Source of the DNA: Cyanobacteria bacterium auto_48_18
Lineage (GTDB): Bacteria; Cyanobacteriota; Vampirovibrionia; Obscuribacterales; Obscuribacteraceae
Direction: 5' to 3'
DNA: 64,000 nucleotides
Assembly: GCA_036170915.1 (NCBI GenBank)
Contig: JAVHQC010000035.1
Coordinates: 96,001-160,000 of the forward strand
A model generated the notes under the pieces. It made no database searches, was not told the DNA's origin, and was given only the letters and a program-made list of their open reading frames with translations. A program made the translations under genes and the position numbers. Of the stretch, positions 13,536 through 48,869 are shown piece by piece. Positions within the stretch are counted from its first letter, which is position 1, and each line of letters begins with the position of its first letter.

Positions 13536-15242
13536 TTAGCGAGGTGCAAACCTTTCTTTTTCACGAGTGAGGCGGTCCCAGTCAGAATCGGTCATGAAGC
13601 CCATTTTAACTAAAAGTTCTACAAGCTTGACGCCCTTCTGCCTGGCGAGCTCAATTACGTCTCTCAATTCGTCGCCGTTGAGGCGCCGACGCTGCAATAG
13701 ATACTGCTCCAGCTCTACTCGACCCAGCAGAAGATCGGCCGTCAAGCTGACAACCTGATCAGGCGGGTCGATGTAACCGCGCTCTAAAGCATACTTACAG
13801 TTATGTAATACCTGAGCCGGGTCTCGACCTAAGCCGCCATCTGTGGCAACGTTGATAAATGTTTTACCTGTCTTAAAAGCAGAAACAATTTTTTTCAAAT
13901 CGTCATCTAAAGCGTCATTATTCAAGGCTACCTGGCCAAAAGGAGCCACATGAAAGCAGGTTTGAAATAGCCTTTCAATATCAATGGCAACCAGAGGCAA
14001 AGGATCGGTGCGACGGATGTCAAAGGATTTTTTCTCGGGCTCCGGCTCCACATCAGCAGGTTTAAAGGAAGTTTGAGCCTTTGGTTTTTCTAAAACCGAG
14101 GTTTGGGTACCAGGCTTTTCGTCGTCATTTTTCAGAGAAGCAGTCTGAGCTTTGGCCATCAGTTCATTAAACTCAGCGCTGCCTACGGCAGGCAGGCTAT
14201 CAGATGTAATTACTTCTGCCGGTCTTTGAACCTCTGCTTCGGCAACAGGTGTCGAAACTGGCTCAGGAATAACTACTGGATCTGGCACTTGAGCTGGCAC
14301 TTGAACTTGAGCTGGAGCTGGCGCTGGAGTTGGAGCTGGCTCAGGCTTAGAGTCAGGCGCAAAATCAGAATCTATTTTTGGTTCTGATTTAAGTTCTGAT
14401 TTAAGTTCTGATTTAATTTCCGGTTGCTTGCTCGACAGCTCCGCCACTAAATCGGCAGCAGGCTGAGATTTACCGGCATGGCCGTTTTTGTTGGCACCAC
14501 CATCAGTGCCTTTGGGCTTAATGGATTTATCAGCAGCCGATTTTTCGCGGGATTTCTCTCCAGATTTATCTGCGGATTTTTCTACAGATTTCTCAACCAC
14601 TTCCTCAGCTGCCGTCGCCGCTGCTTTATCCACCAGGGCCTGTGCCTGACTGAGATCTTCCACCTGGTCTAGAATCGAGTCGAGACTGGGGCGAATGCTG
14701 TCCACAGAGCCGGTGCTCAGTAACCTGAAAAGCGAATTCGTGGCCTGCACCACGTCAAAACTAAACTCACGCATAGCCTGGCGCATGGTACGACCATCGG
14801 TGACCCAACCCAGCACCACATAATCTTCCTTATAAAGCGGTTGCTTTTGCAGCGCCTCTTGCCATTCTTGAGTGCCAAATTTAGGAGACGGCACAATTTC
14901 GGTATTCAGACCGACATTAGACTTCTGCAAAAAAAGCATTTGATCGGCAAAAGTATTGACTTGTTTAAGCGGTATCTTGAGATTACAGCTTTCCGCACTG
15001 GTGGCGCCCTGAGCCAGGCGCTCCACAATAAAAGTACCTTCATTCCAGAAGAGGAATTCAGTCAGGGCGTCATTGCCCTCTAAGAGGCTGAAATTAGCCG
15101 CCAAAATCTCACCGTCGCAGACGATTACTTCGCCTTTCTGAGTACCATTAGTAAGCTGAACGGAATAACTTTTATTTGATTCGGTGGCCAGAAATTGCAG
15201 CAGACCTGGCAGGCTGACATCGGACAAATTGCCTTCAATCAT
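13536..15242 (-). CDS. DUF4388 (PatA-N) domain protein with winged-helix-like segments, low-complexity linker and degenerate MshEN-like C-terminus
   Basis: N-terminus IEGNLSDVSLPGLLQFL...G...A..FLFWNEGTF; C-terminus ELEQYLLQRRRLNGDEL...KLVELLVKMGFMT. Confidence 0.75.
   Translation of the reverse strand: MIEGNLSDVSLPGLLQFLATESNKSYSVQLTNGTQKGEVIVCDGEILAANFSLLEGNDALTEFLFWNEGTFIVERLAQGATSAESCNLKIPLKQVNTFADQMLFLQKSNVGLNTEIVPSPKFGTQEWQEALQKQPLYKEDYVVLGWVTDGRTMRQAMREFSFDVVQATNSLFRLLSTGSVDSIRPSLDSILDQVEDLSQAQALVDKAAATAAEEVVEKSVEKSADKSGEKSREKSAADKSIKPKGTDGGANKNGHAGKSQPAADLVAELSSKQPEIKSELKSELKSEPKIDSDFAPDSKPEPAPTPAPAPAQVQVPAQVPDPVVIPEPVSTPVAEAEVQRPAEVITSDSLPAVGSAEFNELMAKAQTASLKNDDEKPGTQTSVLEKPKAQTSFKPADVEPEPEKKSFDIRRTDPLPLVAIDIERLFQTCFHVAPFGQVALNNDALDDDLKKIVSAFKTGKTFINVATDGGLGRDPAQVLHNCKYALERGYIDPPDQVVSLTADLLLGRVELEQYLLQRRRLNGDELRDVIELARQKGVKLVELLVKMGFMTDSDWDRLTREKERFAPR
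14382..14417. repeat. 12-bp tandem repeat x3 (TTCTGATTTAAG) encoding KSEL/KSE repeats
   Basis: ttctgatttaag ttctgatttaag ttctgatttaat read directly from the sequence. Confidence 0.85.
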
Positions 15243-15541: not shown

Positions 15542-16483
15542 TTGGCCGCCAAAGTTACTGATGAACTCTCAGAAGATTACGCCGACGTCTTTGGCACTGG
15601 AGATGAGCCGGAGGCCGATGATGAGCCGGAGAAGGAGGTAGAGGCCAGCGGCTTCACTGAAGACTCTGTTCGCCTCTATCTGCGCGAAATCGGTCGCGTC
15701 AAAATGATCAAGCCAGACGAAGAAATTGAGTTGGCCAGACGTATTGCCAAAGGGGATGGCGAGGCGAAGAAAAAGCTGATTCAAGCTAACTTACGCCTGG
15801 TAATTTCTATTGCAAAAAAATATTTGAATCGCGGACTGCCCTTTCAAGATCTAATTCAAGAAGGCAATTTGGGCCTGATTCGCGCCGCCGAAAAATTTGA
15901 CCATACAAAAGGTTTCAAGTTCTCCACCTATGCCACCTGGTGGATAAGGCAGGCTATCAGCCGCGGACTGGCCGATAAATCACGAACTATCCGTGTGCCT
16001 GTACACATGGTCGAATCAATCAATAAATTGAAAAAAACCAGTGCAAAATTGGCTCAAGAGTTAGGCCGCAAGCCAAACGAGCACGAGCTATCATCGGCAC
16101 TAGAAATTCCTGTGGGTAAAGTGCAAGAAATCATGGCGGCCGACCGCGAACCTGTTTCAATGGAAATGCCGCTTAACCGCGATGATGAGACATATATCGG
16201 CGACCTGATTGAAGACAACGAAGCTACGCGGCCTGATGCCACCACAGCTGAAGAGCTGATGCGTCAAGACTTGAGCCGCATGCTCAGCCAGTTAACGCCC
16301 CGCGAACGTGACATCATGCATTTGCGCTATGGTCTTGAAGACGGCAGGCAACGCACTCTCGAAGAAGTTGGGCGGCTGTTCAACATTACCAGAGAGCGTG
16401 TACGCCAAATTGAACACAAAGCTTTTCGAAAATTGCGGCAGCCCAACTGGTCATCAAGACTGGCTGGATATCTGGACGATTAA
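15542..16483 (+). CDS. RpoD/SigA-family sigma-70 factor with only a short acidic N-terminus
   Basis: [12 protein letters not shown] (1.2), [52 protein letters not shown]. Confidence 0.9.
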
Positions 16484-20397: not shown

Positions 20398-20831
20398 TTG
20401 ATTTATCAGTCCTAACCACTGTAAAGAATGGGGAATTTGGTGCTATATCAGCCGGAAGTTTGGTAAGGCCGCTTAGCACCATTTAAACGTGGTACATCTA
20501 TGTTAGCGAGTTTAACCAGCGACATGCTATTACTCGAACTTGACGAGGGGGTGAATAAAAGTTCAAGAATATTCAGTAATTTAGCAAATCCATGTCCTTG
20601 GAGTACTCTCGGTAAAGCTTATATCAGGTAAACTGATAGTAGGCATCTTGGCGGTTGCAGCTTACTTTCAGAATTGGGGGAAGTAAGTGCGCAAGTGAGG
20701 GAAGTTAACCTCTATCTTATTGGCTAGTTTAATCCCCCCACAATGCGCACTATTTCACAGAGGCAGCCTTCAGGCTCCGATAGGTCCTGAGCACGCACGT
20801 CTATAGTTTCTGTGAGTTAACCATTTAAATA

Positions 20832-21410
20832 ATGCCTCTGCTTCCATCGAAGAACAACACCAAAGAATTTGATCAATCCGCCGTGTCAGTGCTGACCGAC
20901 CTGAAAAAAGGCGGTAGTGACAAGCGTAATGAATTTATCTGGGTGCACCAGGAACGTATCTACGCTGTAGCCCTGCTGGGTACCGGCGACCATGAGCACG
21001 CGGCCGAAGTCACCATATCTTCCTTCAACAATGCTTTCAGTGCTCTCAACCAGAGTTTGCCTAAAAACCCCGATATGTCAATCTGGGACTGGCTTTCTCA
21101 ATATGTCGTTGAGGCCATGGGTGAGTATCACAGCGCCAACAGCGGGCCACCTGACGAAGAAGAAGCAGACCCTGCTCAAGATGGATCCGCCAGCATGGAC
21201 TGGGAGACAACAGTTCTACTTGGCGTGCAGAGAGTCAAACGTTGCATTGGCTCATTGCCTCAAGAGTTGAAAAGAATCTTTCTGCTCAGGCACAGTCTTG
21301 ACCTCAATTACGAACAAATTTCCATCATTACCAATCAAAAAGTCGAAAGATGTATGGCATTGCTCTACCGCTCTCGAGTGCAAGTAGTGAAATGTTTGGG
21401 CCGCGGTTAA
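20832..21410 (+). CDS. Divergent ECF-type sigma-70 factor
   Basis: Region 2-like HQERIYAVAL..TGD...AAEVT...F and DWL; region 4-like LPQELKRIFLLRH..DLNYEQIS...LYRSR; ECF-typical size (192 aa). Confidence 0.7.
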   Translation: MPLLPSKNNTKEFDQSAVSVLTDLKKGGSDKRNEFIWVHQERIYAVALLGTGDHEHAAEVTISSFNNAFSALNQSLPKNPDMSIWDWLSQYVVEAMGEYHSANSGPPDEEEADPAQDGSASMDWETTVLLGVQRVKRCIGSLPQELKRIFLLRHSLDLNYEQISIITNQKVERCMALLYRSRVQVVKCLGRG

Positions 21411-21454
21411 AGTTTACAAGTTAGTGACAGTAAAGGTTTAAAGGTTGATATCTA

Positions 21455-24400
21455 ATGTCTGACGCCGAGTACAGATTACTGATTCAAAGATCATTCGATG
21501 AAGAACTCTCTAAACAAGAGCATCGGGCGTTCGTCAACCATCTGGAAACATCAGATTCCGGTCAGAAGTTTCACCATCAACTTGATCAAATGATCCAGGC
21601 CGCACAAGATACACCTTTGCCCGATGACCTTCGTCCACAAAACCCGGAAGCTCTTGCGAGAATGATTATGGAACAACTACCGCAGAAAAAAGGCTCTATT
21701 TTTGCCATGTTCACCAACTTGTTTGGTGGCGGCGGCGGTGGAAAAGCCAAACCAGGGGCAAGCAAGAACGGTCAGTCGAAAGGCTCGGTCAAAGTTAAAG
21801 GCGGCGACAAGAAAGCCGATGCCAACCGTGGAGCGAAAAAGGGCAAAGGTAATGTTCAAGTAGATGTCGATGACGAAAATGACGTCAGCGCACCAACCGA
21901 CAGACGCCTGCCCGGCATGAAGTTAAGCCGCAAAGAAAAGGCTGCTGAAGCTGCTGCAGAAGAGTTGGAAAACTCAATCGGCACTTTCTCGCGCCTGGGC
22001 AAAATTAATTCCCGTGCCAACGATGCCATGGAAAATCGTGATGCTCAATCAACCACCAGATCTCTTGGTGAAAAATTTGGCATGCCTGGTGCCACAAGCA
22101 ATCCACTTGACGAAGCACCACTAACACTGGCTGAATCAATCAAGCGCAAAGTTTCAGAATCGCAAAAGCTTTCGCCTCTAGACATGGAGAGCGAGGAGTA
22201 CAGTCAAGAAACGTCCGGCGCTCAGGCGCAAAGTGGTGGCAATTTTGCCAGGCCTCAAGACTACGCAGCACCAGAACAAGGCGCTTCAGCATGGAGCGCG
22301 CCAACACCAATCGGTTTACCTATTAAACAAAAAATGGGCGCACCGGTAACGGCTCAGGGCTTAGACTGGAGTGGTGCACCTGCTGGTAGTGGCACCGGCA
22401 GTTATGAAGAACACCCTGGTTCAGCTATTGGTTTAGCACCACCTGGGCAGAAGCCTCCTACTCAGCAAAACATGGGTGCCGTATCGAGCGCCGCATCGGG
22501 CGGGGGTCTTGATTGGGGTGGTGCGCCAGCAGCGGCGCAAAATAATCAAAGCGGCTGGGGAAGTAATCAGCCTGCAATGGAACCTACATCAAGTCAGCCG
22601 CAAGCATTTGCGCCTCCCACTGGCATGAACAATGCTGGTATTAGTATCAGTGCTCCAGCACCAGTAGCACCTGCTGCACCTGCTACTGCTGATGGTGGCG
22701 GCTGGGGTTCGGGCTGGGGCAATGAAAATCAAGCTCCGGCTCCCGGCGCGCCTGTTCAGGGCACCGGCGTGCCTCTAAAATCATCTGACTCGTGGGCAGT
22801 GCCCGGTTCTGAAGCAGCCAGCTCCTGGGGACAGCCCGGCGAAACTCCAGCAGCTGCATTCCAGCCTGAGCCTGTAGCTGCAAGCCCAGGCGTTGACCCA
22901 TGGGGAAGCGCTGCGGTAGCAAATTCTGGTTCTGAATCAAGCACCAGCACTGGTGGCTGGTCGAGCCTGAGCAATGGCAATGCATCAGCTCCAGCTCCAA
23001 TGTCACCGGCACAAGGTGAAGGTGATGGTGGCAACTGGGGCCAGGCAGGCACATGGGGCGCACCTGGTACGCAGGCCGACTCGTCTTCAACTGGTACTCT
23101 AGACTCGGTACATAATGCTGCTCCTGCCCCGGCTAACGACCCCTGGGCACAACCGGCTCAGCCAGCTGCAGCAGCTCCAACTGCTTCGACTAATGACGCT
23201 TGGGCCAGTGTAGCTGCTGAAGTAGCAAAGCCTGCCGCAGTCGCAGCTACTAATGATCCTTGGGCACAACCTGCTCCAGCTGCCGCAGTCGCTAACGATC
23301 CTTGGGCACAACCTGCCTCCATGGGCGCACCACCAGCTTTCCCTGCTCCTGTAGCAACGAATGACCCATGGGCACAGCCTGTATCCGAACCAGCTCCTGC
23401 CCCTAGTAATGATCCCTGGGGCCAAGCTTCACAGGCTCCACAAAGCGCACAAAATTTCGGCGCACCGGCTTCAACTATTCCTGCTTCCGCTCCGGCACCA
23501 GTCAATGACCCTTGGGCCCAGGCAGCGGCAGCACCCCAGGCATTAGCACCGGTTGCCAATGAAAATGTAGGTTGGTCAGCACCAGCAGCTCCTGCTGCTG
23601 ATGCCTCAGGCATGGCCTGGGGACAATCAGCATCTGGGGGTGGCGCTCAACCTATCGCTCCCGCTCCACTTGCTACTCCAGCGTGGGGCTCACCGGAATC
23701 GGCACCACCTGATGCTAGTGCAATGCAGCCGGTGGCTCGAGCAGCTTGGTCACCAGAAGCTGAACAGATGGAAACCGGCACCTGGCAAGCCTATGGGAAG
23801 AAAGAACAATCTACACCACTAGCACCAGCAGCCTCGGCGTTTGTGCCTCAGTCTGCACCAGCAGCCGCCCCGGCAGGCGATCGCTGGGATCAACCGATTC
23901 AAGATCGCAAGCCAGAACCGGCTGCCACTGAAGCTGCTCGTTGGGATGTGCCAATTCAAGCACGCACCACGGGAGCCGATCTACCAGCACCAGCACCAAT
24001 TGCACCGGTGATGAGTTCGGGTATTCCGGTCAATCAGATCGTAGAAAAAATGGGCGCGGTACTTGGTGGTGGGCAGGACAACCGTTGGGATGTACCTATT
24101 CAAGAACGGGCTAATAAAGATGCTGCACCAGAGCAAGCAGCTGAAGTTATGCCTGCAGCACCAGCTAATGCGGCACCATTTGGTGGCGCACCGGCACCTG
24201 CTGCACCATCAGCATGGGGCGATACTCCATCTCCATCTCCATCTCCAGCCCCGACAACCTGGGGCACACATCCGGAACAGCCTACTACAACTCCATGGGG
24301 GGCGGTGGAAAGCGCACCAGCAGCAGCTCCGGCAGGTGCTGCAGACGCGCCTGCAGCACCTGCCGCCTGGTCGGCACCAGCAGAAGTGGCACCTCAAACA

Positions 24401-26098
24401 CAACCAGCTGGATGGGGCAATGAAAAGCCACAAGTTCCTTCCTGGACAGCCGCCGCAGAAGCCGCTCCGGCTGCCGCGCCAGCATGGAACAGTGCTCCGG
24501 CAGCAGCAGCACCAGCTCCTTCTGGATGGGGTGTAGAACCACCTGCAGCAGCACCAACATTGCCAGCGCCTTCAGCCTGGGCAGCAGAACCACCAGCCGC
24601 ACCAGCAGCACCTGCAGGAGCAGAGGCGTGGGGTCAGCCACCAGCATGGGGTCAGGCTTCTCCAACTCCTGCTCCAGCAGCACCACCAGCACCAGAAGTA
24701 ACTGATCGCAACAATGCTGGTGGTATGTTCAATTTAGCCGACCGCGATATCGATAAGATTTTTGGCGACAATCTCGGCGTCAGCGAACCGGTTGGCAGAA
24801 CACTGGTAAATACTGGTGGAACGGATCCTTCATTAGCTGTGCCCGCGGCTGCAGTAAATAATTTTGCTCCACCGCAAGCTCCTGCAGCAGCGGTTCCACA
24901 AACACAGGCTCCAGCACCGATTGCACAAGTACAAGCTCCAGCAGCGGCACCACAAGCAACACCTGCCGCTCAAGAAAACAAAGGTCTGTTTTCACTAACA
25001 GATAATGATCTCGACAAATTGTTCAGCAATAATTTAGGAGTGGACGAACCCTCGACTCAAGTAGCGAACAATGCACCATCCATAAGTCCAGTGCAAGCCG
25101 CCAACAACTTTGCGCCACCAGCGCAAGCAGCCCCAGCAGGCTGGAGTGCACCAGCTGAAGCACCTGCAGCTCAACCGGCAGGTTGGGGTGTACCTGCACC
25201 TGCTCCTGTGGCCGGCGCCACTACATCTGGTGGCGGCTGGTCAGCCGCCCCACAAGCACCAAGCGGCTGGGGCATGGAAGCAGCTCAACCTGCAGCAGCA
25301 GCACCAAGCGGTTGGTCAGGCGCTACTCCTGCAGCACCTGCTGCCGAGGCACCAGGTGGTTGGGGCACACCCACACCACCAGCACCGCCAGCCTGGAATC
25401 AAGCTCCAGCTGCAGCGGCAGCACCAGCGCAAGAGCAAAAAGGTGGCTTGTTCTCAGTTGACGATAATGTGATGAACCGCATTTTCTCAGATAATCTAGG
25501 CATTCCAGAAGATGCAAATAGTTCTTCAGCTACAAATTCTTCTTTAGATTCGCAGACTGATATGGGCATGTCGGCTCCGCCTAAGATTGCTGGTATCGGC
25601 CGTCTTGACGCTTCTGCCGATCAGAACCAAGACGCTGGTTCAGGCAGAATTGCTTCCATCGGGAAATTCTTGCTCGATCAAAAAGACCTGGATAAAATCG
25701 GTAAACTAACAAGCTCCGACTTTAACGAAGGCAAAATGCGCATCCTCACTCTTGAGGCTTCGCAAGATTTGCAATCGTTGCTAAGCCAGATAGGCACTCA
25801 ACAGGGAGTCGTCGGCTCAGTAATTGTGGGTCATGACGGACTTCTGATTGCCAACACCATGCCTGGTGATATGGACGCTGAATCTGTTGGAGTATGGGCA
25901 CTGGGTGTTTATATGAACACTGAACACGTGACTAAAAAAATGGGTCACGATCGGGTGCACCAGGTTGTCTCGAGAACCCACCGCGGTTACGTGGTAATTG
26001 CCGACTTCGGCGGCGGTTTGCTCGTCACTGTAACTGACGGCAGAGACACTGATTCATTGATTCCGCTGATGCGTACCATCACACAGCTGGTTAATTGA
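21455..26098 (+). CDS. 1547-aa protein: anti-sigma-like N-terminus, Trp-studded low-complexity region, C-terminal Roadblock/LC7 (MglB-like) domain
   Basis: C-terminal LQSLL...GVVGSVIVGHDGLLIA...DAESVG...GYVVIA..GGGLLVTV is a Roadblock signature; the N-terminus aligns without gaps to the ZAS repeats of the 41289-42206 protein. Confidence 0.8.
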   Translation: MSDAEYRLLIQRSFDEELSKQEHRAFVNHLETSDSGQKFHHQLDQMIQAAQDTPLPDDLRPQNPEALARMIMEQLPQKKGSIFAMFTNLFGGGGGGKAKPGASKNGQSKGSVKVKGGDKKADANRGAKKGKGNVQVDVDDENDVSAPTDRRLPGMKLSRKEKAAEAAAEELENSIGTFSRLGKINSRANDAMENRDAQSTTRSLGEKFGMPGATSNPLDEAPLTLAESIKRKVSESQKLSPLDMESEEYSQETSGAQAQSGGNFARPQDYAAPEQGASAWSAPTPIGLPIKQKMGAPVTAQGLDWSGAPAGSGTGSYEEHPGSAIGLAPPGQKPPTQQNMGAVSSAASGGGLDWGGAPAAAQNNQSGWGSNQPAMEPTSSQPQAFAPPTGMNNAGISISAPAPVAPAAPATADGGGWGSGWGNENQAPAPGAPVQGTGVPLKSSDSWAVPGSEAASSWGQPGETPAAAFQPEPVAASPGVDPWGSAAVANSGSESSTSTGGWSSLSNGNASAPAPMSPAQGEGDGGNWGQAGTWGAPGTQADSSSTGTLDSVHNAAPAPANDPWAQPAQPAAAAPTASTNDAWASVAAEVAKPAAVAATNDPWAQPAPAAAVANDPWAQPASMGAPPAFPAPVATNDPWAQPVSEPAPAPSNDPWGQASQAPQSAQNFGAPASTIPASAPAPVNDPWAQAAAAPQALAPVANENVGWSAPAAPAADASGMAWGQSASGGGAQPIAPAPLATPAWGSPESAPPDASAMQPVARAAWSPEAEQMETGTWQAYGKKEQSTPLAPAASAFVPQSAPAAAPAGDRWDQPIQDRKPEPAATEAARWDVPIQARTTGADLPAPAPIAPVMSSGIPVNQIVEKMGAVLGGGQDNRWDVPIQERANKDAAPEQAAEVMPAAPANAAPFGGAPAPAAPSAWGDTPSPSPSPAPTTWGTHPEQPTTTPWGAVESAPAAAPAGAADAPAAPAAWSAPAEVAPQTQPAGWGNEKPQVPSWTAAAEAAPAAAPAWNSAPAAAAPAPSGWGVEPPAAAPTLPAPSAWAAEPPAAPAAPAGAEAWGQPPAWGQASPTPAPAAPPAPEVTDRNNAGGMFNLADRDIDKIFGDNLGVSEPVGRTLVNTGGTDPSLAVPAAAVNNFAPPQAPAAAVPQTQAPAPIAQVQAPAAAPQATPAAQENKGLFSLTDNDLDKLFSNNLGVDEPSTQVANNAPSISPVQAANNFAPPAQAAPAGWSAPAEAPAAQPAGWGVPAPAPVAGATTSGGGWSAAPQAPSGWGMEAAQPAAAAPSGWSGATPAAPAAEAPGGWGTPTPPAPPAWNQAPAAAAAPAQEQKGGLFSVDDNVMNRIFSDNLGIPEDANSSSATNSSLDSQTDMGMSAPPKIAGIGRLDASADQNQDAGSGRIASIGKFLLDQKDLDKIGKLTSSDFNEGKMRILTLEASQDLQSLLSQIGTQQGVVGSVIVGHDGLLIANTMPGDMDAESVGVWALGVYMNTEHVTKKMGHDRVHQVVSRTHRGYVVIADFGGGLLVTVTDGRDTDSLIPLMRTITQLVN

Positions 26099-26129: not shown

Positions 26130-27809
26130 TTATGTGGCTTGTGAAAGCACATAATTGACCAGCGTGCGCGCACCAAAACCGGTGCCGCCTTTACAGAACT
26201 CGTCGCGCTCGCGATCGAGCCAGGCCATGCCGGCTATATCAAGGTGGGCCCAGGGTTTACCCTCAGTAAACTCCTTTAAGAACATGGCAGCACAACTAGA
26301 ACCTGCTTCGCCGCGCGAACCGGCATTTTTCAAATCAGCAATGTCACTCTTTAAGGCGTCTTTATATTCGACAAATAAAGGCAACTGCCAGTATTGCTCT
26401 GAGCTTGCGGCACCACTGGCGATGACAGAGTTCACCAGATTTTGGTCTGAGCCCATAATTCCGGCGGCTACACGGCCCAGGGCCGATACTACAGCACCAG
26501 TCAAAGTAGCGATATCGATAATCTCGTCAGCACCATTGCGCAGGGCATAAGTAATGGCATCAGCCAACACGAGCCGCCCTTCAGCGTCGGTATTATTCAC
26601 TTCAATGGTTTTACCATTCATCGATTTGAGCACGTCTCCCGGATGCAGCGCAGCTGAGCCCGGCATATTTTCAGTGGCGGGTATCACAGCTAACACCGAT
26701 ACCTCTGGTTTGACTTTAGCAATTACCTGCATGGCTGCAAGTACTGCTGCCGCTCCGGCCATGTCATATTTCATATGCTCCATGCCCACAGCGGTTTTCA
26801 ATGATAAGCCGCCAGAGTCAAAGGTAATGCCTTTCCCCACCAGACCAATAGTTTTTTTGCTTTTTGTTTTGGCAGCAGTGTACTTGAGAACGATTAAACG
26901 CAGAGGTTCTTTTGCTCCACGAGCTACACCAAGAAAAGCTCCCATACCAAGCTTTGTCACTTGTTCGGGATCAAGTATTTTAATAGTCAAACCATTGTCG
27001 GCGGCAATTTTGCTGGCCGCTTGAGCCAGCCTGGTTGGCGTCATCACGGCTGGCGGTTCGGCAATGAGCGCCCGTGCCATATTAGTCGCCTCAGCCATGG
27101 AAACGGCTAAGAAAGCCGCTTTCTTCACTTGAGCAGCGCTAAGATCGCGGCTAAAAACATTCAAAGTGCAATTGACTGAAGAATTGGCTGCTGCTCTTTT
27201 ATCGTCTGCTCTGGTTTTGTACTGAGCAAAATTGAAAGACGACAAGATCCACGATTCGACTAAAGAAGACAAACAGTCAGAAGCATCCAGCGTCTTTCTT
27301 GCGGCCGGTAGATCGGCTTTGCTTTTTTTGGCACCGACCGCTTTTGTGCCATTTGCCGTTGCAGTTGCACAAGTACGCATAAGCAGTGCAACGTTTCTCA
27401 CAACAATTGTTTTAGGGCTCTTCTTAGCTGCAGTCGCTTTATCTTTATCTGTGTCTTTGTCTTTATCGCTGAGAGCCTGAGCATTATTGAGGGCAGTAAT
27501 TTTCTTTGAAATTTGTACGCCCAGTTTGCGATATGCAGAGAGCGTCACGTCTGCTTCAGTACCGAGACCAAACAAGAATAATCTTTTAAATGGTGCTTTA
27601 CCATACGTGGGCAAAATCAGCTGCTGGCCTAATCTTCCGCCAAAACCGTCTTCTGCTGCCATGTTTGCCAGAGCAGTAATGAGGCTCTGATCTATTTTTA
27701 GCTCCAGAGCACTCAGGGCATCAAGAATTTTTTCCTGATTGAATACTCCCACTACCAGCAGATCCGCTGCCAGAGCGCCTGCAGCACCAGATTGTAATTT
27801 TACGTCCAT
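26130..27809 (-). CDS. pepA: Leucyl aminopeptidase (M17)
   Basis: VGKGITFDSGGLSLK, MKYDMAG, NTDAEGRL, DIATLTGA, WAHLDIAG. Confidence 0.95.
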   Translation of the reverse strand: MDVKLQSGAAGALAADLLVVGVFNQEKILDALSALELKIDQSLITALANMAAEDGFGGRLGQQLILPTYGKAPFKRLFLFGLGTEADVTLSAYRKLGVQISKKITALNNAQALSDKDKDTDKDKATAAKKSPKTIVVRNVALLMRTCATATANGTKAVGAKKSKADLPAARKTLDASDCLSSLVESWILSSFNFAQYKTRADDKRAAANSSVNCTLNVFSRDLSAAQVKKAAFLAVSMAEATNMARALIAEPPAVMTPTRLAQAASKIAADNGLTIKILDPEQVTKLGMGAFLGVARGAKEPLRLIVLKYTAAKTKSKKTIGLVGKGITFDSGGLSLKTAVGMEHMKYDMAGAAAVLAAMQVIAKVKPEVSVLAVIPATENMPGSAALHPGDVLKSMNGKTIEVNNTDAEGRLVLADAITYALRNGADEIIDIATLTGAVVSALGRVAAGIMGSDQNLVNSVIASGAASSEQYWQLPLFVEYKDALKSDIADLKNAGSRGEAGSSCAAMFLKEFTEGKPWAHLDIAGMAWLDRERDEFCKGGTGFGARTLVNYVLSQAT

Positions 27810-27818
27810 TGGGTTTCC

Positions 27819-29783
27819 TCAAGTACTGCTATTGATCACGCGTGCCACTATTTCGTCTACGATTTTGCTGTCTACTTGCCGCCGACAATAAGCAAGGTAG
27901 GCTTCCATCCAGCGGCGCAATTCTAAAAGCACTGCTGAAACCGGCACACCATCACGTTTCATCTGAGCAAGATTAACTGATATACGACCTTCATGGTCTA
28001 CGTGAAAACGAGATTTTGCCGGCGAGTCGCCATGCACATAGTGCAAAGATGCTTGCAAGAGCGCCTTATTGTCTTCGCGACCGACTAGCTCTTGCATCTC
28101 AGCGCCGATTTTCTGCAAAACAATGAGCGGACGAAAGAGACTGGCCTGTTGAATATTAGCCAACTTCAGCTCAGTGAGCATATACAACGATTTGACAATT
28201 TTATGAGTGGGCCAGTTATCGAAAGCCTTAATTACTTCGTCGATGGTAGACAAACCGTCTATAAGAGAAGCCAGCTCAGCAATCATTGAGCGGTCTTCAC
28301 GACTCAATACAGTCTCGTCCATCAAGCGTATAGGCGCACCGTTATACTGCTGCCAGACCATCTCGAAATTCCAGACTCTCTCTAAAATCGAATCTCGCCC
28401 CTGGGGCAGACTGGCAAAAATTTGATTGACTTGATCTTGGCAGAGTGCCGAGTCTAAGAGCAAGCGCTCTAGTGTCTGAGTAATTTTGCAATTTTCATCA
28501 AATTCTTGAGACAGTCCTTTGTCTCGAAAAACAAAAATGCCCTCGCTCCAGACTGTAATAAATTCGACCATGGCGTGATAGCCGCGCAACTTATTCATTT
28601 TGGCGTGAGTGGGTTTGCCGTCCACAAAAGCGACAATCAATATTTTTTCGCGATCTTCTACGGTGAGCAAACCGGTTTTCTTGGCCGTTCCCAGTGACTG
28701 TAAAAGGCCAGCCGTATCAATAGCACCGAGGCTTCCGATCATAGAATCGCGCATAGTTTCAATATTGACTGTACGCGAGACGCCTGGCAGTTCGTCTTCG
28801 GTGCGCCTGTGATAGCCACCATAAAGATATTGATCGTCAAGCAAAACTTCTAGCTCACGAGTGTTCAAATAACCGGCACGCACGGCCAGAAGACCAAGGA
28901 AAGTGCGTTGCTGTTTGCCCCAACCTTCTTCTTGTTGCCGCTCAAGAAGCTCGCGTAACTGCGTTTCAGTGAGAATGCCGCAGGCCACCATATAGCGCCC
29001 AAGGCGGAAGGGCTTGCGATTATGATAACAATTTGACAAAAATTGAATGCGCGAAAATACAGGAAAAATTAAACGTGCCGCTTCCAGCTCTTGCAATATT
29101 CGCAAAGCTTCATCAGAAGGCAGTTGATGGTGCGATTCTACATTGCGCACAATCGACTCAACTGAAGCATAATCTTCTACCATCTGCATCACCCAGTTTT
29201 GCGGCGCAGGCAGGGTAAAGTCACCCTTTACTTGCTTACCGTCTGAGGTCAAAACAGGAATTGAAGTTGAGAGAATGTGATTGGCCAGAGTGCTGCCACC
29301 ACCTTTGAGGCGGCGGCGATCGATACCACTAACAGTGGCACAGGCATAGTCAGCCAGCAGCGGGTAGCGAGTGAAAATACCAAAGGGACTGTCGTAAATA
29401 TTGAACGTCAGACCACCAGCAGGATCGTCTTTCGTTAGAGTAATAGCGCCGTCGCCCTTTACAAAAAGCAGCACTCCTTGCGGGTTAAGGAGCTTCTTCG
29501 CGTACATAGCAAATTTAACTAAAGCATCTAAAGGCAGCGAAAAACCAGTCTGCATCAGATCAATGATCAGGCCATCTAAACTTTTACCGGTCTCCACCAA
29601 TTTGTCTAGTTGACTATATAGATTTTCGCGATAAGAAAATGTCAAAAAGGCCAGGGAAGAATTGAGATAATTTTCAGTTGCTTCTTTTTCGCTATTTGAC
29701 GGTCCAGAAGATCCAGATGATCCGGGCGACCCGGACGAACCAGATGCAGCCTGTGGAGCATCGTTAGGAGAGAAGTCAGCCAT
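27819..29783 (-). CDS. DUF4388 domain protein with MshEN c-di-GMP-binding motif and STAS-like N-terminus
   Basis: RLGRYMVACGILTETQLRELLERQ...FLGLLAVRAGYLNTRELEVLLDDQ; DUF4388 GSLGAIDTAGLLQSL..AKKTGLLTV...F.DGKP.HA...WSEGIFVF. Confidence 0.8.
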   Translation of the reverse strand: MADFSPNDAPQAASGSSGSPGSSGSSGPSNSEKEATENYLNSSLAFLTFSYRENLYSQLDKLVETGKSLDGLIIDLMQTGFSLPLDALVKFAMYAKKLLNPQGVLLFVKGDGAITLTKDDPAGGLTFNIYDSPFGIFTRYPLLADYACATVSGIDRRRLKGGGSTLANHILSTSIPVLTSDGKQVKGDFTLPAPQNWVMQMVEDYASVESIVRNVESHHQLPSDEALRILQELEAARLIFPVFSRIQFLSNCYHNRKPFRLGRYMVACGILTETQLRELLERQQEEGWGKQQRTFLGLLAVRAGYLNTRELEVLLDDQYLYGGYHRRTEDELPGVSRTVNIETMRDSMIGSLGAIDTAGLLQSLGTAKKTGLLTVEDREKILIVAFVDGKPTHAKMNKLRGYHAMVEFITVWSEGIFVFRDKGLSQEFDENCKITQTLERLLLDSALCQDQVNQIFASLPQGRDSILERVWNFEMVWQQYNGAPIRLMDETVLSREDRSMIAELASLIDGLSTIDEVIKAFDNWPTHKIVKSLYMLTELKLANIQQASLFRPLIVLQKIGAEMQELVGREDNKALLQASLHYVHGDSPAKSRFHVDHEGRISVNLAQMKRDGVPVSAVLLELRRWMEAYLAYCRRQVDSKIVDEIVARVINSST

Positions 29784-40747: not shown

Positions 40748-41299
40748 CTATTTATTTGGATTATCGATCGGCAGGACGTCACGCATGCGACGCATCAGGT
40801 TCTGAATTTTATCTGGCATTACTTCCGTCTGCGAGCCAGGGTTAAGCTGCGCTTTGCGATTTTGAATCATGATGCGCATCATGTCTTCCAACTGCTTCTG
40901 CTGCTTCTCGTCAAGAATTTTGCGTTTATTAAGGTAGTTTTGCATAGCAGCATTACTAAGCTGCGCTCTGCGCGATGCAATTGACTGCTGCATCGACAAT
41001 ATTTGAACCGGGTCAGCATTATGATCAGACAAAAGCTTTTGCAACTTCGACTGCTCATCGCGAATTTGCGGGCTCAGCTCATTGAAATCTTTGTACCACT
41101 GCTGCTCAAGCGTCTGGATTTGACCGCTTTGCACTGGTGTTAGATTGAGCTTAGTCCAGTCAACGCTGCATGAAGCCGAAGCGGCTGGCCCTTCTTGGGC
41201 GAGCCCGGGAGGTGCAAATTGAATAGTACACAAGGTTGCCACGAGAGCCGCAGAAAAAATAGCGCCGGCAGATTTTGCCGAACGAACACTATTCTTCAT
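40748..41299 (-). CDS. Spy/CpxP (LTxxQ) family periplasmic protein
   Basis: Signal peptide, LNLTPVQ and ILDEKQQ LTxxQ-like motifs, Gln-rich helices. Start moved to ATG 41299. Confidence 0.8.
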   Translation of the reverse strand: MKNSVRSAKSAGAIFSAALVATLCTIQFAPPGLAQEGPAASASCSVDWTKLNLTPVQSGQIQTLEQQWYKDFNELSPQIRDEQSKLQKLLSDHNADPVQILSMQQSIASRRAQLSNAAMQNYLNKRKILDEKQQKQLEDMMRIMIQNRKAQLNPGSQTEVMPDKIQNLMRRMRDVLPIDNPNK

Positions 41300-42206
41300 A
41301 CACCACCGCTTCAGCCTTATCTGCTGGTTGCAACAACGATGAATCAATCAAATATCCTTCCGCTGAAACTTGTCGCACGTTCGATTGTTCCGGACTATTG
41401 AGCCAGAAAGCTCCCAGACCGAAAACCATTACAAAGACAGCCGCTACAGCCGCAAGTGCATATAAGCGTCTATCAAGTCCTTTTACTACCTTATTAGATG
41501 TAAGTTGAGCCGATTGTGTTTTTGGTGTAAAGGGCACCACTTGCAATTTGCTTTTGATACCAGGCCACAGATCGAACTCTTCTGGAATCTCAGGTTTATA
41601 AGAATCGCGCAGAATATCGCCCACAGTCGAAATCTTGTTGAATTCAACCTGACAATTGGCGCAATCAGTTAAGTGCTTAGTGATTTCTCTGTGTCTTTGC
41701 GAAACCACTTCTTGATCGAGGTAAGCGGAAAGCTCGTTATCAATCAGGGCACAGTCAGCGTTAAGTCGTTCCTTAATAGAAGACCACAAATCGACATTGA
41801 CGGCCGCCGGCAGTTCCAACCCTTTTGACAGCAGACGATTGGTTTGATTAAGAGCAGTAAATTTCGCCAGACAGTCGGCGCAATCTTTAAGATGCTGATT
41901 AACACCCTCTTGAGCTGGTGAAGTCAATTCTCCATCCAGATAGGCAGAAAGATCGTCAAGAATGACATCACACACAGAAGGTAATTCGTGTGACATTTTC
42001 GACCACAGATCGGGCATCTCGGAGCTATCTGAGAAAGCCCTGCCGAGCATGGCAGTCAACGCTTTTAGCGATTCATAGCTGGCCGTGCACTCGGTGCAAT
42101 CGAGCATATGTTCGTTAATTTCTTTGGCAAGCTCCGGAGCTACTTGATTGTCAAGCAATGCCGAAAGTTCATCCTTATATTTATCGCAAGCTAAAGCTTC
42201 AACCAT
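41289..42206 (-). CDS. Anti-sigma factor with three tandem zf-HC2 (ZAS) domains and a C-terminal TM helix
   Basis: Three C-x6-LSA(Y/L)LD...H-x3-C-x2-C repeats; ATG 42206 overlaps the sigma stop codon. Confidence 0.88.
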   Translation of the reverse strand: MVEALACDKYKDELSALLDNQVAPELAKEINEHMLDCTECTASYESLKALTAMLGRAFSDSSEMPDLWSKMSHELPSVCDVILDDLSAYLDGELTSPAQEGVNQHLKDCADCLAKFTALNQTNRLLSKGLELPAAVNVDLWSSIKERLNADCALIDNELSAYLDQEVVSQRHREITKHLTDCANCQVEFNKISTVGDILRDSYKPEIPEEFDLWPGIKSKLQVVPFTPKTQSAQLTSNKVVKGLDRRLYALAAVAAVFVMVFGLGAFWLNSPEQSNVRQVSAEGYLIDSSLLQPADKAEAVVYEE

Positions 42207-42834
42207 CGCTAGGAACCTCTGGTACAGACTGAGATTGTTCGATGTAGGGCTTAAGCAACTCTTGCAATTTGGTACGGGCTCGCGCAATTCGCGACTTAAC
42301 CGTTCCCATTTCTGTTTGTGTAATTACTGCAATTTCGTCGTAGCTTAAACCCTCCACTTCTCTCAAGACGATGGCTGTACGAAACTGTTCCGGCAACCGC
42401 AACATTGCCTGGCGGATGACTTCCGAGACTTCCTTATTGAGGATTTTTTCATCAGGCAAGATGGAATTATCAGGTATATCGCGGGTTGAGCCGTCAGACT
42501 CACCGTCCTCTCCACCATGAGAATCATCCATAGATACAGTGGGCAGGCGACGCGGGCGCTTACGCAGTTCGTCATAAAATAGATTAGTGACAATTTGAGT
42601 TAGCCAACCACGGAACGAGGCTGGGTTTCTCAGGTTGTTAATGGAGCGCCAGACGCGAATGAAAACTTCCTGAGCCAGATCCGAAGTGTCTTCCCAGTCA
42701 GGAGCCAATTGATAGATTAATGAATATACGGTGCGTTGATGCCGTTTAACCAGCTCTTCAAAGGCCTGGGGCTCGCGTTTCTGGCAAGCTAAAACTAGAT
42801 CACGGTCACTTTTCTGAGAGTAAGCGGTTGGCAT
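42199..42834 (-). CDS. ECF sigma-70 factor (RpoE/cyanobacterial SigG-like)
   Basis: AFEELV..HQ..VY, LAPDW...DLAQEVFIRV, FRGWL..I.TNLFYDELRKR, LREVEGLSYDEIA, GTVKSRIARAR. Confidence 0.93.
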   Translation of the reverse strand: MPTAYSQKSDRDLVLACQKREPQAFEELVKRHQRTVYSLIYQLAPDWEDTSDLAQEVFIRVWRSINNLRNPASFRGWLTQIVTNLFYDELRKRPRRLPTVSMDDSHGGEDGESDGSTRDIPDNSILPDEKILNKEVSEVIRQAMLRLPEQFRTAIVLREVEGLSYDEIAVITQTEMGTVKSRIARARTKLQELLKPYIEQSQSVPEVPSDG

Positions 42835-44423: not shown

Positions 44424-45392
44424 ATGAAATCCGGCACGCTTACAGTCAATCCTGACACTGCGGAGTCATACATTGTTGAACTCACTGAAGGCGAAGTGCT
44501 TCAGATTGGGCGTAAACCTGCCTCCGGTGGTATGAAAAAACTGGTTTTGCCCTACCCTGAAGTATCAGGGCAACATTCAGAAATTCGTTGCAAATCAGAA
44601 GGCTGGACAATCGTTGATGCCGGCAGCACTAACGGCACAATGCTCAACGGCGGGCGCTTGACGCCCGGCAAAGAGTATCACTTACACTCTGGTGACCGTG
44701 TCAAAATCGCCCAGTACGAGCTTCTGGTAGATCCACCTGAATTCGATCATCCTAATCAAGATGAAGATACGGACGATTCACAAGACCGCACGCAGTTCCG
44801 TATTCAAATGATGAACGCCACCATTCTGGTTGGTGACATCAAAGGCTTTACCTCTTTGATGGAAGCCCATGCCACCAGGCCGATGATGGTAATGGAAGCA
44901 GCGCAAAAAGTTTTTGATACTCTCAATGATGAGATCAATAAGAACTATGGTCAGCTCGAGAAAATCGCCGGTGACGCCATCATGGCTTACTGGCAGGGCA
45001 ACGACGCTAAAACTGGCGGCGGGCTTTCAGCGTGTCAGGCCTGCATTACCGCTTTAAAATTGAAGATTATTACCGTCAAATTGGCAGCAGATAAACGAGT
45101 CTGGCCTTTTGAAGGCCATCCGTTAATGCTCGACATGGCTCTGGCAACAGGTCCTGTGGCCTCCGGTAATCTTGGCTCAAACGCATCTAACCCCGCACTT
45201 CTGGGTGACACGGCCAATCTGGTATTTCGACTGGAGAAACTTATTGGCGACGATCGCCCTGGCGACATTATTGTCGAAGGCGTGACTTACGAGCTGGCTA
45301 AAGACAATTTTAAATTTGATTTTCTTGGTCAATTCAATGTAAAAGGCCGCCAGAAACCAGTCGATGTCTATCGCTTGATCTCACCTCTTTAG
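44424..45392 (+). CDS. FHA domain plus class III nucleotide cyclase
   Basis: FHA IGR...VSGQH...GSTNGT; cyclase GDIKGFT, EKIAGDA, GDTANLVFRLE, VKGR. Confidence 0.9.
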   Translation: MKSGTLTVNPDTAESYIVELTEGEVLQIGRKPASGGMKKLVLPYPEVSGQHSEIRCKSEGWTIVDAGSTNGTMLNGGRLTPGKEYHLHSGDRVKIAQYELLVDPPEFDHPNQDEDTDDSQDRTQFRIQMMNATILVGDIKGFTSLMEAHATRPMMVMEAAQKVFDTLNDEINKNYGQLEKIAGDAIMAYWQGNDAKTGGGLSACQACITALKLKIITVKLAADKRVWPFEGHPLMLDMALATGPVASGNLGSNASNPALLGDTANLVFRLEKLIGDDRPGDIIVEGVTYELAKDNFKFDFLGQFNVKGRQKPVDVYRLISPL

Positions 45393-47255: not shown

Positions 47256-48869
47256 TTAGCCTTTGATGTCGCGATAAAGTGCAATAGGCATGGCTGCACG
47301 CAGAGCCGCTGCCTTAGCCGCTTCACCAGCAGCAAGCAAAACTCCTAAATCAAGACAATCTTCAGGAATACAACTAACGCCAAAGGCCAAAGACAAGTTT
47401 GAGCTATCAATATTCGGGCTCAAAGGCGCACTCCAAATTGCTTTAGCCACTCTCTGAGCAAAAGTATTGGCACCAGTAGTTTTTGTATTCGGTAAAAGCA
47501 TTGCATAATCATATTGGTCATAGTGGGCCAATAAATCGATGTGACGCTTCAAACGGCTGATGCGACGCACTACTTCGGCCAGTGCAGGAGTATCAAGTGG
47601 CTGCCTTTCAAAATGAGGCGGGCCGCTAATTACTCGCATCTCCATTACCATTACAGAAAGTGGACTGCCTGATCGGTAACCGCGGAAATATTCTTGCTCG
47701 AGAAAATACAAGAACGCTTCATAAGTAAACATGCCGGTTTCAGGCCGTCGCAAGTTCATCATGACACTGTGAATCTTTGATTTATCAATAATCTTGGGGG
47801 CGATTGTTGCCTTCTCTTCTTTGACACCAACGAAGTCATTGGTGAATGTAATCAAGTCGGCGTTAAGCAAAAGGGTAATCAAAGGCACCCACTGGCTGCG
47901 CGATAGACGTGTTTTATCGACAAGTGCTTTAATTGTGGTCTTATCATCAATCACTGAATAAAAAGCTTTCAGTATATGACTGGCCACAGTGGTATCGTGC
48001 GCCGCCAGACTTTCAAAGTCGTAACCGACCACGCTCTCATGTTTACGAATGAGCACAGAATCAGTCTGCAGGCCAACGTTGCGCAAGAACGTAACTTTGT
48101 CCACAAGGTGCACGCCCAGAATTACAAGATTCTCGATGGGCTGAGCAACGTTTCTCTGAGCCACTCTAACTCGTGGTTCAAATTGGTACTTTCCTTCGCG
48201 CCAGGTGAGCAAATCTAAAATGCCTTCATCACCTAAGATGCCGCCTACATCTGCATGTTGAGGTTCGCCATCAACAAAGAATATTTTTGCGTGCAAACTA
48301 CCTTGATCAACATCAAGTCGGCCGGTCATTTTCGCTAATAAAATTGACTGCAGCAATCTGGAAATTTCAACAAGTGACAGGTCACCGTTAGGTGGCAACG
48401 TGGACCGCGTCCAGGCATTGTCTTGCGGTTGGGTGACTGACTTATTGCTTTTGGGATCAGTTTCATCGTTTTGCTTGGAAGTCTGCATAAAGAGCGTGTC
48501 GCGTCGCTTGGACGAATCTCTAAAAGCTTCACTGACTGAAATCACACCGTCCGCTTGTACACTCTGGTGCACTTCGCCGCATGACGAAATAATCAGATTA
48601 TAGACAAGCAAAACGTCACAGCTGGTGTAATCCCAGACCAGGCGCATGTTCTTGCCGACGAATAATTTCCATTCAGTGTCTCCGCCACGCCAGGGACAAA
48701 GAATATTGAGAGTAAAATCTATTGCTCGATCGGGTGTAGACCACGTAATTTCAACTTGCCTTCCCCGATGCTCCATTGCCACCGATAAATAGTGGTGAAT
48801 TTCAGACAAACCCGGCGCGGCCGGTAACTTCTGAAGAGTTTTAGGGAGCGGACCCGATCTCCGTAACAT
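47256..48869 (-). CDS. DUF4388 plus degenerate GGDEF domain protein
   Basis: GDLSLVEISRLLQSILLAKMTGRL...IFFVDGEPQHA...WREGKYQF; GGDEF-fold PETGMFT...PLSVMVME...RHIDLLAHYDQYDYAMLLPNT...LAFGVS. Confidence 0.82.
   Translation of the reverse strand: MLRRSGPLPKTLQKLPAAPGLSEIHHYLSVAMEHRGRQVEITWSTPDRAIDFTLNILCPWRGGDTEWKLFVGKNMRLVWDYTSCDVLLVYNLIISSCGEVHQSVQADGVISVSEAFRDSSKRRDTLFMQTSKQNDETDPKSNKSVTQPQDNAWTRSTLPPNGDLSLVEISRLLQSILLAKMTGRLDVDQGSLHAKIFFVDGEPQHADVGGILGDEGILDLLTWREGKYQFEPRVRVAQRNVAQPIENLVILGVHLVDKVTFLRNVGLQTDSVLIRKHESVVGYDFESLAAHDTTVASHILKAFYSVIDDKTTIKALVDKTRLSRSQWVPLITLLLNADLITFTNDFVGVKEEKATIAPKIIDKSKIHSVMMNLRRPETGMFTYEAFLYFLEQEYFRGYRSGSPLSVMVMEMRVISGPPHFERQPLDTPALAEVVRRISRLKRHIDLLAHYDQYDYAMLLPNTKTTGANTFAQRVAKAIWSAPLSPNIDSSNLSLAFGVSCIPEDCLDLGVLLAAGEAAKAAALRAAMPIALYRDIKG

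Follow-up and report, generated by a model that had tools for sequence, protein, structure and literature searches.

Pairs of extracytoplasmic function (ECF) sigma factors and anti-sigma factors are a major route of bacterial signalling, and to our knowledge nearly all of the pairs that are understood receive their signal via a membrane-spanning or a small redox-sensitive anti-sigma. In RsiW, the anti-sigma of Bacillus subtilis SigW, the anti-sigma domain (ASD) is followed by a transmembrane (TM) helix and a domain outside the membrane, and regulated proteolysis eliminates the protein. RsrA, a zinc-associated anti-sigma (ZAS) that responds to redox, and ChrR, an ASD with a C-terminal cupin sensor, are soluble, and the signal is taken by the protein itself or by its C-terminal domain. 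MglB, a protein of the Roadblock fold, is a small stand-alone GTPase-activating protein of the Ras-like GTPase MglA, and its gene is usually located beside mglA. The locus described here occupies positions 20832 to 26098 of a window of 64,000 nucleotides (the whole stretch of DNA analysed, contig C35:96001-160000 of the 4.9 Mb, 86% complete genome of Cyanobacteria bacterium auto_48_18). It encodes a divergent ECF-type sigma-like protein of 192 aa (P0001, 20832..21410, + strand) and, after a gap of 44 nt, a giant protein of 1547 aa that starts with a putative anti-sigma domain, carries on as a long disordered tether and ends in a Roadblock domain; both open reading frames (ORFs) and the spacing between them were recovered as the initial annotation had given them. 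The giant protein is a conserved, membrane-free candidate anti-sigma whose C-terminus has a fold known for regulating small GTPases in bacteria and eukaryotes alike, and it is found in a lineage that also retains MglA and many PATAN proteins. We lean, with modest confidence, towards the reading that the locus is a lineage-wide pair of a sigma and a cytoplasmic anti-sigma, in which the Roadblock-ended tether reads the state of type IV pili or of cell polarity.

The comparisons are based on a scan of one genome per species, which yielded 95 relatives with 80 loci retained, and on profile alignments of the sigma and of the giant protein's N-terminus built from 13 orthologues. The related records are labelled almost wholly as Candidatus Obscuribacter, Obscuribacterales or Melainabacteria. 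Resemblance of the first 80 residues of the giant protein (21455..21694, +) to an anti-sigma domain is weak in the single sequence, because the match of residues 5-33 to zf-HC2, although in register (profile positions 3-31), reaches 15.3 bits (E 0.022) against a cut-off of 22.2, and because BLASTP against the three-repeat ZAS protein encoded in the same window at 41292-42287 (-) gives an E of only 0.004. Once the orthologues are aligned, the proposed likeness to ZAS repeats becomes solid: zf-HC2 is matched by 12 of the 13 aligned N-termini at E<=1, the best at 4.5e-7, and orthologues from sister genera begin with M-x-C-x-R-F-R...H-L-E-x-C-E-S-C, which places the canonical set of ZAS ligands at the same aligned positions. 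The N-terminal profile also finds a known anti-sigma structure in the PDB, namely RsiW in complex with SigW (5wuq_C, E 2.2e-6, positions 7-79). The orthologues bear the canonical ligands and the profile matches RsiW, and from these alignments we consider it well supported that the giant N-terminus represents a class-I anti-sigma domain which has lost its zinc ligands. In the window copy the ligand positions are held by D3, H29, S33 and G36; the replacement of the three cysteines by D, S and G was thus correctly described at the outset, and His29 is retained. Because the HxxxCxxC motif and the upstream Cys are gone, this copy is best called an ASD and not a ZAS. The full Cys/His motif is present in 59 of the 80 loci and missing from 21, and its loss maps to two events on a tree of the sigma plus ASD, in clades that both have 100/99 support: one of 16 rows, which includes the window and Ca. 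Obscuribacter phosphatis, and one formed by L072/L076.

The alignment to RsiW ends with the LPxxK motif, immediately ahead of the membrane helix of RsiW. At the position of that helix the giant protein has a short hydrophobic or amphipathic segment of about 12 residues (GSIFAMFTNLFGG, 21695..21733, +), which is kept in all 13 aligned orthologues and whose length and hydrophobicity are insufficient for a TM helix. The highest 19-aa Kyte-Doolittle window of the whole giant protein scores 1.25 and falls within the strands of the Roadblock domain, so no TM helix is seen in it, in line with the first description.

The pairing of the two genes is conserved throughout the related loci: the ORF directly after the sigma gene starts with an ASD-type N-terminus in 80/80 of them. 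At a threshold of E<=0.001 the sigma is matched in 24/24 genomes of the window's own family, in 3/3 of the order's second family and in none of 13 genomes from six further families of the class. For two of the 24 (G001 and G022) the search gave just a weak sigma match near E 1e-7, and no clear orthologue. The giant ORF is complete in 61 of the 80 loci, with lengths from 744 to 1845 aa (median 1531), and 57 of these 61 end in Roadblock; the four that do not (L077, L103, L112, L113) are truncated. In L018 (2003-6136) and L019 (2255-5286) the remainder of the giant gene continues in another frame. These split and truncated genes, whose breaks lie within the disordered region, could be due to frameshifts or to errors in the assembly of low-complexity sequence.

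Evidence for the sigma-like nature of P0001 comes from Pfam and from its family profile. The sole Pfam match of the protein is Sigma70_r4_2 (E 8.4e-7, above the cut-off), and this region 4 is detected in 13/13 orthologues. Compared with the PDB, the profile matches 6in7_B (E 3.4e-9), RpoE (1or7_A, 1.4e-7) and SigW (5wuq_A, 3.9e-6), and these matches span positions 11-187 of the query, which is nearly the whole length of solved ECF sigmas. Conservation across the order is very strong, with a mean column identity of 63% in the sigma alignment. When the sigma alignment was modelled together with an alignment of the N-terminal 120 aa of the giant protein, the complex obtained a score of 0.85, as opposed to 0.01 for the best of three controls; a score of 0.85 is attained by 116 of 157 solved complexes and by 2 of 215 mismatched pairs. 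The runs share at least 89% of contacts, the pLDDT (predicted local distance difference test) of the partner is at least 71, and both domains of the sigma are contacted, through residues 25-73 and 114-189. The model supports a placement of the ASD between sigma regions 2 and 4. Since sigma/anti-sigma complexes have already been solved, the score may reflect likeness to those pairs, and the model is to be taken as a sign of resemblance and not of binding by the Cys-less copy.

The C-terminal module of the giant protein consists of a pre-helix (GSGRIASIGKFLLDQKD) and a Roadblock/LC7 domain (25586..26098, +). Robl_LC7 is the only Pfam match in the giant protein (residues 1442-1526, E 9.5e-9), and the last 170 residues are its best-conserved part, with 72% mean column identity in 25 sequences. 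The C-terminal profile matches 7f8m_A in the PDB (E 1.3e-8), as well as dynein LC7 and, weakly, CvnB5 (3leq, E 0.016). In a model made with AlphaFold2 (AF2) the Roadblock part has pLDDT >90, and Foldseek assigns it a probability of 1.00 with a target TM-score (TMt) of 0.84 to 7yh1_A. Pfam, the PDB profile and the fold search concur that the C-terminus has the Roadblock fold, as had been proposed.

Between the two ends lies a disordered region of about 1280-1300 aa, rich in Ala, Pro, Gly, Gln and Ser and with regularly spaced Trp (21734..25585, +). Ala accounts for 20%, Pro for 13% and Gly for 10% of this middle part, and 21 of its 46 Trp are within WG; the Trp-bearing motifs are WG/GW, NDPWAQP and RWDxPIQ, and Trp makes up 2-4% in most orthologues. 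Tandem repeats are nearly lacking in the giant gene at the DNA level (three short arrays only), and the protein repeats of the tether are old and degenerate. The tether carries three copies of a 20-residue motif, G-L-F-x-L-x-D-x-D-[ILM]-D-K-[IL]-F-x-x-N-L-G-[VI], located at residues 1090, 1177 and 1331 (GMFNLADRDIDKIFGDNLGV, 24722..24781; GLFSLTDNDLDKLFSNNLGV, 24983..25042; GLFSVDDNVMNRIFSDNLGI, 25445..25504; all +). A hidden Markov model (HMM) of this motif found 2-3 copies in each of the full-length orthologues tested. The genome has three Roadblock proteins: the giant one, a stand-alone one of 125 aa, and P0003 of 1075 aa (G000:C20, L044:6316-9543, -), which consists of an N-terminal multi-TM domain, an acidic disordered region and a C-terminal Roadblock. 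A related motif, LFxGGVDxDIDxIFSELAPPEAxKEV, is present four times in the acidic region of P0003, and this protein is a possible membrane partner of the giant protein.

The composition of the tether also invites another explanation, by which the giant protein would be mainly a structural, self-associating and multivalent matrix protein with aromatic "stickers", and sigma binding would be secondary. The 46 Trp along the chain, their content being kept in orthologues, the 2-3 conserved linear motifs together with a dimerising fold, and the repetition of the motif-plus-Roadblock design on the membrane anchor of P0003 would all suit such a protein. Yet the ASD is the most conserved feature of the N-terminal part and is always paired with the sigma in the order; we regard this explanation as very improbable.

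A possible link to a GTPase and to polarity is suggested by the genomic context. An MglA orthologue is encoded on contig C29 and matches structures of M. xanthus MglA at E 8e-79; genomes of the same genus mostly have 2-4 MglA-family matches (paralogues about 70% identical), and in this genome, which is 86% complete, a single one was found. The Roadblock module and MglA share their distribution among the relatives, occurring in the same 30 of 41 and in the same families (24/24 in family f1, 3/3 in f2, 2/2 in f3 and 0/11 in f4-f8), a co-distribution which is no statistical test because these genomes are kin and not independent. A conserved neighbour of the locus is a PATAN (DUF4388) protein of 654 aa (P0007, 27819..29783, -; DUF4388 E 3.9e-12), with a weak MshE-type c-di-GMP motif (22.3 bits against a cut-off of 38). 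A PATAN orthologue lies at most two genes downstream in all of the longer relative loci examined. Among the 80 loci it was seen in 28, a number which the 7-kb flank keeps low. The genome encodes at least 14 DUF4388/PATAN proteins with scores over the cut-off, and three are encoded in the window: 13539-15242 (-), 27819-29783 (-) and 47259-48869 (-), the last also with a GGDEF match. In family f3, which is without the sigma, a 636-aa protein made of a TM part, a disordered part and a double Roadblock is encoded directly upstream of pilB, pilT and pilC (L142, G028:C2, 5959-12337). In a published account of PATAN neighbourhoods, MglB homologues and some MglA genes are located near PATAN genes, and mglA and mglB co-occur across genomes (PMC4316618); sigma factors are mentioned nowhere in that paper, and neither a sigma nor an anti-sigma belongs to the neighbourhoods it describes (PMC4316618). 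The presence and co-distribution of MglA, the PATAN neighbour and the pilBTC-linked paralogue are circumstantial support for a GTPase/polarity link of the anti-sigma, which is unproven. What stands of the architecture put forward in the initial annotation is thus a cytoplasmic protein with a class-I ASD devoid of zinc ligands, a Roadblock end and a conserved pairing with the sigma, while its coupling of sigma release to a GTPase or polarity module is unproven.

From these features the following mechanism may be proposed. By gripping regions 2 and 4 of the sigma, the N-terminal ASD would prevent it from joining RNA polymerase, probably holding it in the manner of other class-I pairs, in this genus without zinc. 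The disordered tether with its 2-3 short motifs and the Roadblock would take the place of the membrane helix and the outside sensor, and the Roadblock would be the end by which the protein is controlled or localised. It might dock to P0003, to the small stand-alone Roadblock protein, to MglA or to the neighbouring PATAN protein, and the bound sigma would be stored, localised or freed depending on the state of the type IV pilus or polarity apparatus.

Several results weigh against this mechanism, in addition to the possible likeness effect in the complex score and the kinship of the genomes in the MglA comparison. Those on the sigma side concern P0001 itself. Region 2 (Sigma70_r2) was detected by Pfam in 1/13 orthologues only, at E 0.076, as opposed to region 4 in all of them; NCBIfam matches are all far under their cut-offs (the best 32 bits against 130, TIGR02937 24.8 against 42.9); and an HMM alignment to AlgU shows replacements at several positions which we take to be those touching core enzyme or DNA in ECF sigmas. 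No regulon was recognised by the motif scan, in which the conserved blocks upstream of the sigma gene recurred nowhere convincing in the genome. In addition, shorter metagenomic ASD-like/Roadblock relatives have no sigma-like ORF within about 4 kb (0/4 loci; these four, from queries P0102/P0115/P0119/P0133, belong to another subgroup of shorter proteins). Because region 2 is poorly recognised, the NCBIfam scores are below cut-offs and the contact positions are replaced, P0001 is here treated as a divergent ECF-type sigma with a degenerate region 2, an assignment made from sequence profiles, and a rival is kept in which it is a sigma-like decoy or adaptor comparable to the sigma-like domain of PhyR. 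The pair would then be a protein-protein module of a scaffold and would direct no transcription, which would also agree with the lack of a recognised promoter. Against this rival, the family profile spans the full length of solved ECF sigmas, region 2 included, the size, gene order and short gap are typical of ECF sigma/anti-sigma operons, conservation in the order is very strong, and P0001 has no receiver or other domain typical of known mimics. On balance we think a decoy improbable.

On the Roadblock side, the domain is not specifically MglB-like: the sequence profile of the C-terminus gave no MglB match in the PDB, and the nearest structures are an Asgard Roadblock and LAMTOR/MP1-p14 (TMt about 0.8), after which MglB follows with 0.73-0.79. 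The mglA gene, on contig C29, is not adjacent to the locus on C35. In a rival explanation the sigma/anti-sigma pair is genuine and the Roadblock serves for dimerisation only, with no tie to a GTPase or to pili; some unknown ligand, or proteolysis of the tether, would free the sigma. Among the matched structures, the Roadblock domains of LAMTOR, dynein LC7 and Asgard homodimers are dimerisation modules, mglA is unlinked to the locus, and fusions of the module to Clp_N (P0061, P0062) hint at a connection to a protease. The shared distribution of MglA and the module, the conserved PATAN neighbour and the pilBTC neighbourhood in the sister family speak against it, all of them circumstantially, and we hold such a passive role to be rather unlikely.

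The Roadblock module itself belongs to a wider family. An exhaustive profile search with the module returned 751 proteins at E<=1e-3, 115 of them at E<=1e-30. Among the best 150 of the 751, which were inspected, the same module, including the pre-helix G-x-I-x-x-[IL]-G-x-F-L-L-D, is found behind several heads: ASD/ZAS (the orthologues), a Cys-less ASD-like domain (in proteins of 530-820 aa), a multi-TM anchor, Clp_N, double zinc ribbons and TPR; in some of these 150 proteins it stands alone. One shorter relative, P0063, has 44% identity to the window protein across residues 1-91. As far as the literature searches show, this multi-head family is undescribed. A broader version of the mechanism, which at present we consider doubtful, is that the pre-helix and Roadblock form a common docking plug for varied heads on motif-bearing tethers, with the anti-sigma domain, Clp_N, zinc ribbons, TPR and the membrane anchor as heads and the tether motifs binding Roadblock. 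In Obscuribacterales one of these heads would hold a sigma factor, so that the type IV pilus polarity system of MglA, Roadblock and PATAN proteins would gate transcription.

The sigma gene has a conserved partner on its other side, a divergent gene for a 271-aa protein of no known family (P0006, 19582..20397, -). A homologue precedes the sigma gene in divergent orientation in 76 of the 80 loci (76/78 when loci with less than 1.2 kb of upstream sequence are set aside) and encodes 245-290 aa with the invariant motifs AHQSGLYNRQ..LW and DPVARYES.LP.P. P0006 has no Pfam or NCBIfam match and the protein atlas gave nothing usable. Its AF2 model has pLDDT 80, with which Foldseek found nothing at E<=0.001. 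The top hit of VIA-align (8em1_A, Z 6.7, 134 aligned, rmsd 4.4) and several PD-(D/E)xK-type nucleases at Z 5-6.7 score too low to indicate anything beyond a common arrangement, and none was accepted as a fold match. P0006 is likely a third component or a target of the system. The intergenic region between the P0006 and sigma genes contains two conserved non-coding blocks, block 1 (CGTGGTACATCTATGTTA, 20488..20505, +), whose 8-mer GTGGTACA recurs in 60 of the 79 regions upstream of the sigma, and block 2 (ATCAGGTAAACTG..GGCATCTTGGCGGTT, 20623..20656, +), with GTAAACTG in 53 of 79. The blocks are conserved across the order and their spacing varies: the distance between them ranges over 76-151 nt, and that separating block 2 from the start codon over 79-246 nt. 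Between the two blocks an AGGAGG-like box is frequent. A leader RNA element was looked for and gave no Rfam match and no consensus structure in 20 sequences, and sigma-70-type promoters and terminators were not above the shuffled expectation. The only other composite block match in the genome, where about 0.1 are estimated by chance, is placed inside coding sequence, some 420 nt ahead of an ORF resembling ketol-acid reductoisomerase, and was rejected as a target. RNA contigs from four runs of one microbial-mat study, derived from strains 90-99% similar, span about 20545-21307 and 21440-21587; they are uninformative on starts, strand and co-transcription, and the lack of coverage over the rest of the giant gene is neutral.

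Downstream, the convergent neighbour of the giant gene is an M17 leucyl aminopeptidase (26130..27809, -; Pfam/NCBIfam), found in 45 of the 80 loci, a count likewise limited by the 7-kb flank. A sigma-70-type factor of 313 aa with regions 1.2, 2, 3 and 4 is encoded at 15542-16480 (+), 4.3 kb upstream of the ECF-like sigma, and in two other genera (L019 492-1454; L020 10429-11403) its orthologue adjoins the ECF-like sigma and replaces the P0006 gene. At 41289-42834 (-) the window also encodes a pair made up of a canonical ECF sigma, with regions 2 and 4, and an anti-sigma in which three zf-HC2 repeats are combined with a part resembling RseA_N and a TM segment at the C-terminus. The pair is followed by an LTXXQ/Metal_resist-type periplasmic protein at 40748-41347 (-), and an FHA domain joined to an adenylate/guanylate cyclase domain is encoded at 44424-45389 (+).

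The initial annotation knew of no described anti-sigma with this architecture, and we likewise came across no description of it. In full-text literature searches, judged by listings and abstracts, none of the papers listed dealt with an anti-sigma carrying Roadblock, and the searches gave nothing on ECF sigmas together with anti-sigmas in Melainabacteria, on Robl_LC7 with zf-HC2 or ECF, or on a relevant anti-sigma with MglB. In the re-classification of ECF sigmas soluble anti-sigmas are predicted in 10 groups, and others may exist (PMC7826278). The main text of that paper does not mention Roadblock, Robl, GTPase or Melainabacteria, and one of its supplements is without Robl_LC7, Roadblock, PF03259 and Melainabacteria.

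Among described systems, SigW/RsiW is the closest to the sigma and the N-terminal head of the giant protein: no solved structure matches the N-terminal profile better than RsiW, SigW is among the matches of the sigma profile, and in both systems the anti-sigma gene comes after the sigma gene. Unlike RsiW, the giant protein lacks a TM helix and, in this genus, the zinc ligands, and it extends for about 1450 more residues up to its Roadblock end. With RsrA and ChrR, neither of which was matched in our searches, it shares by their general properties a cytoplasmic anti-sigma domain, but these are small proteins that are not known to have long disorder or Roadblock, whereas the giant protein has both. 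Its Roadblock end has the same fold as MglB (3t1r, 6hjm, 6izw and 3t12, with the TMt values given above); unlike MglB, it forms the C-terminal end of a protein of 1547 aa whose gene is on another contig than mglA. The conserved PATAN neighbour and the weak CvnB5 match recall PATAN/Roadblock neighbourhoods and the conservons of Streptomyces, from which the locus differs in having no histidine kinase and no CvnD-type GTPase; for the latter (PF03029) nothing in the genome scored over the cut-off. The FlgM/FliA checkpoint could be compared by analogy only and not by homology, if the fate of the anti-sigma were tied to a motility machine; unlike in FlgM, no export or secretion signal turned up in the giant protein, although no search was aimed at one. 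If the Roadblock end does read the polarity or pilus apparatus, it would be a new class of input for the control of sigma factors, and would also give a first functional entry point to the regulation of genes in Obscuribacterales, which are uncultured. Should the docking-plug version be true as well, the system would be a counterpart of the FlgM/FliA checkpoint controlled by a Ras-like GTPase.

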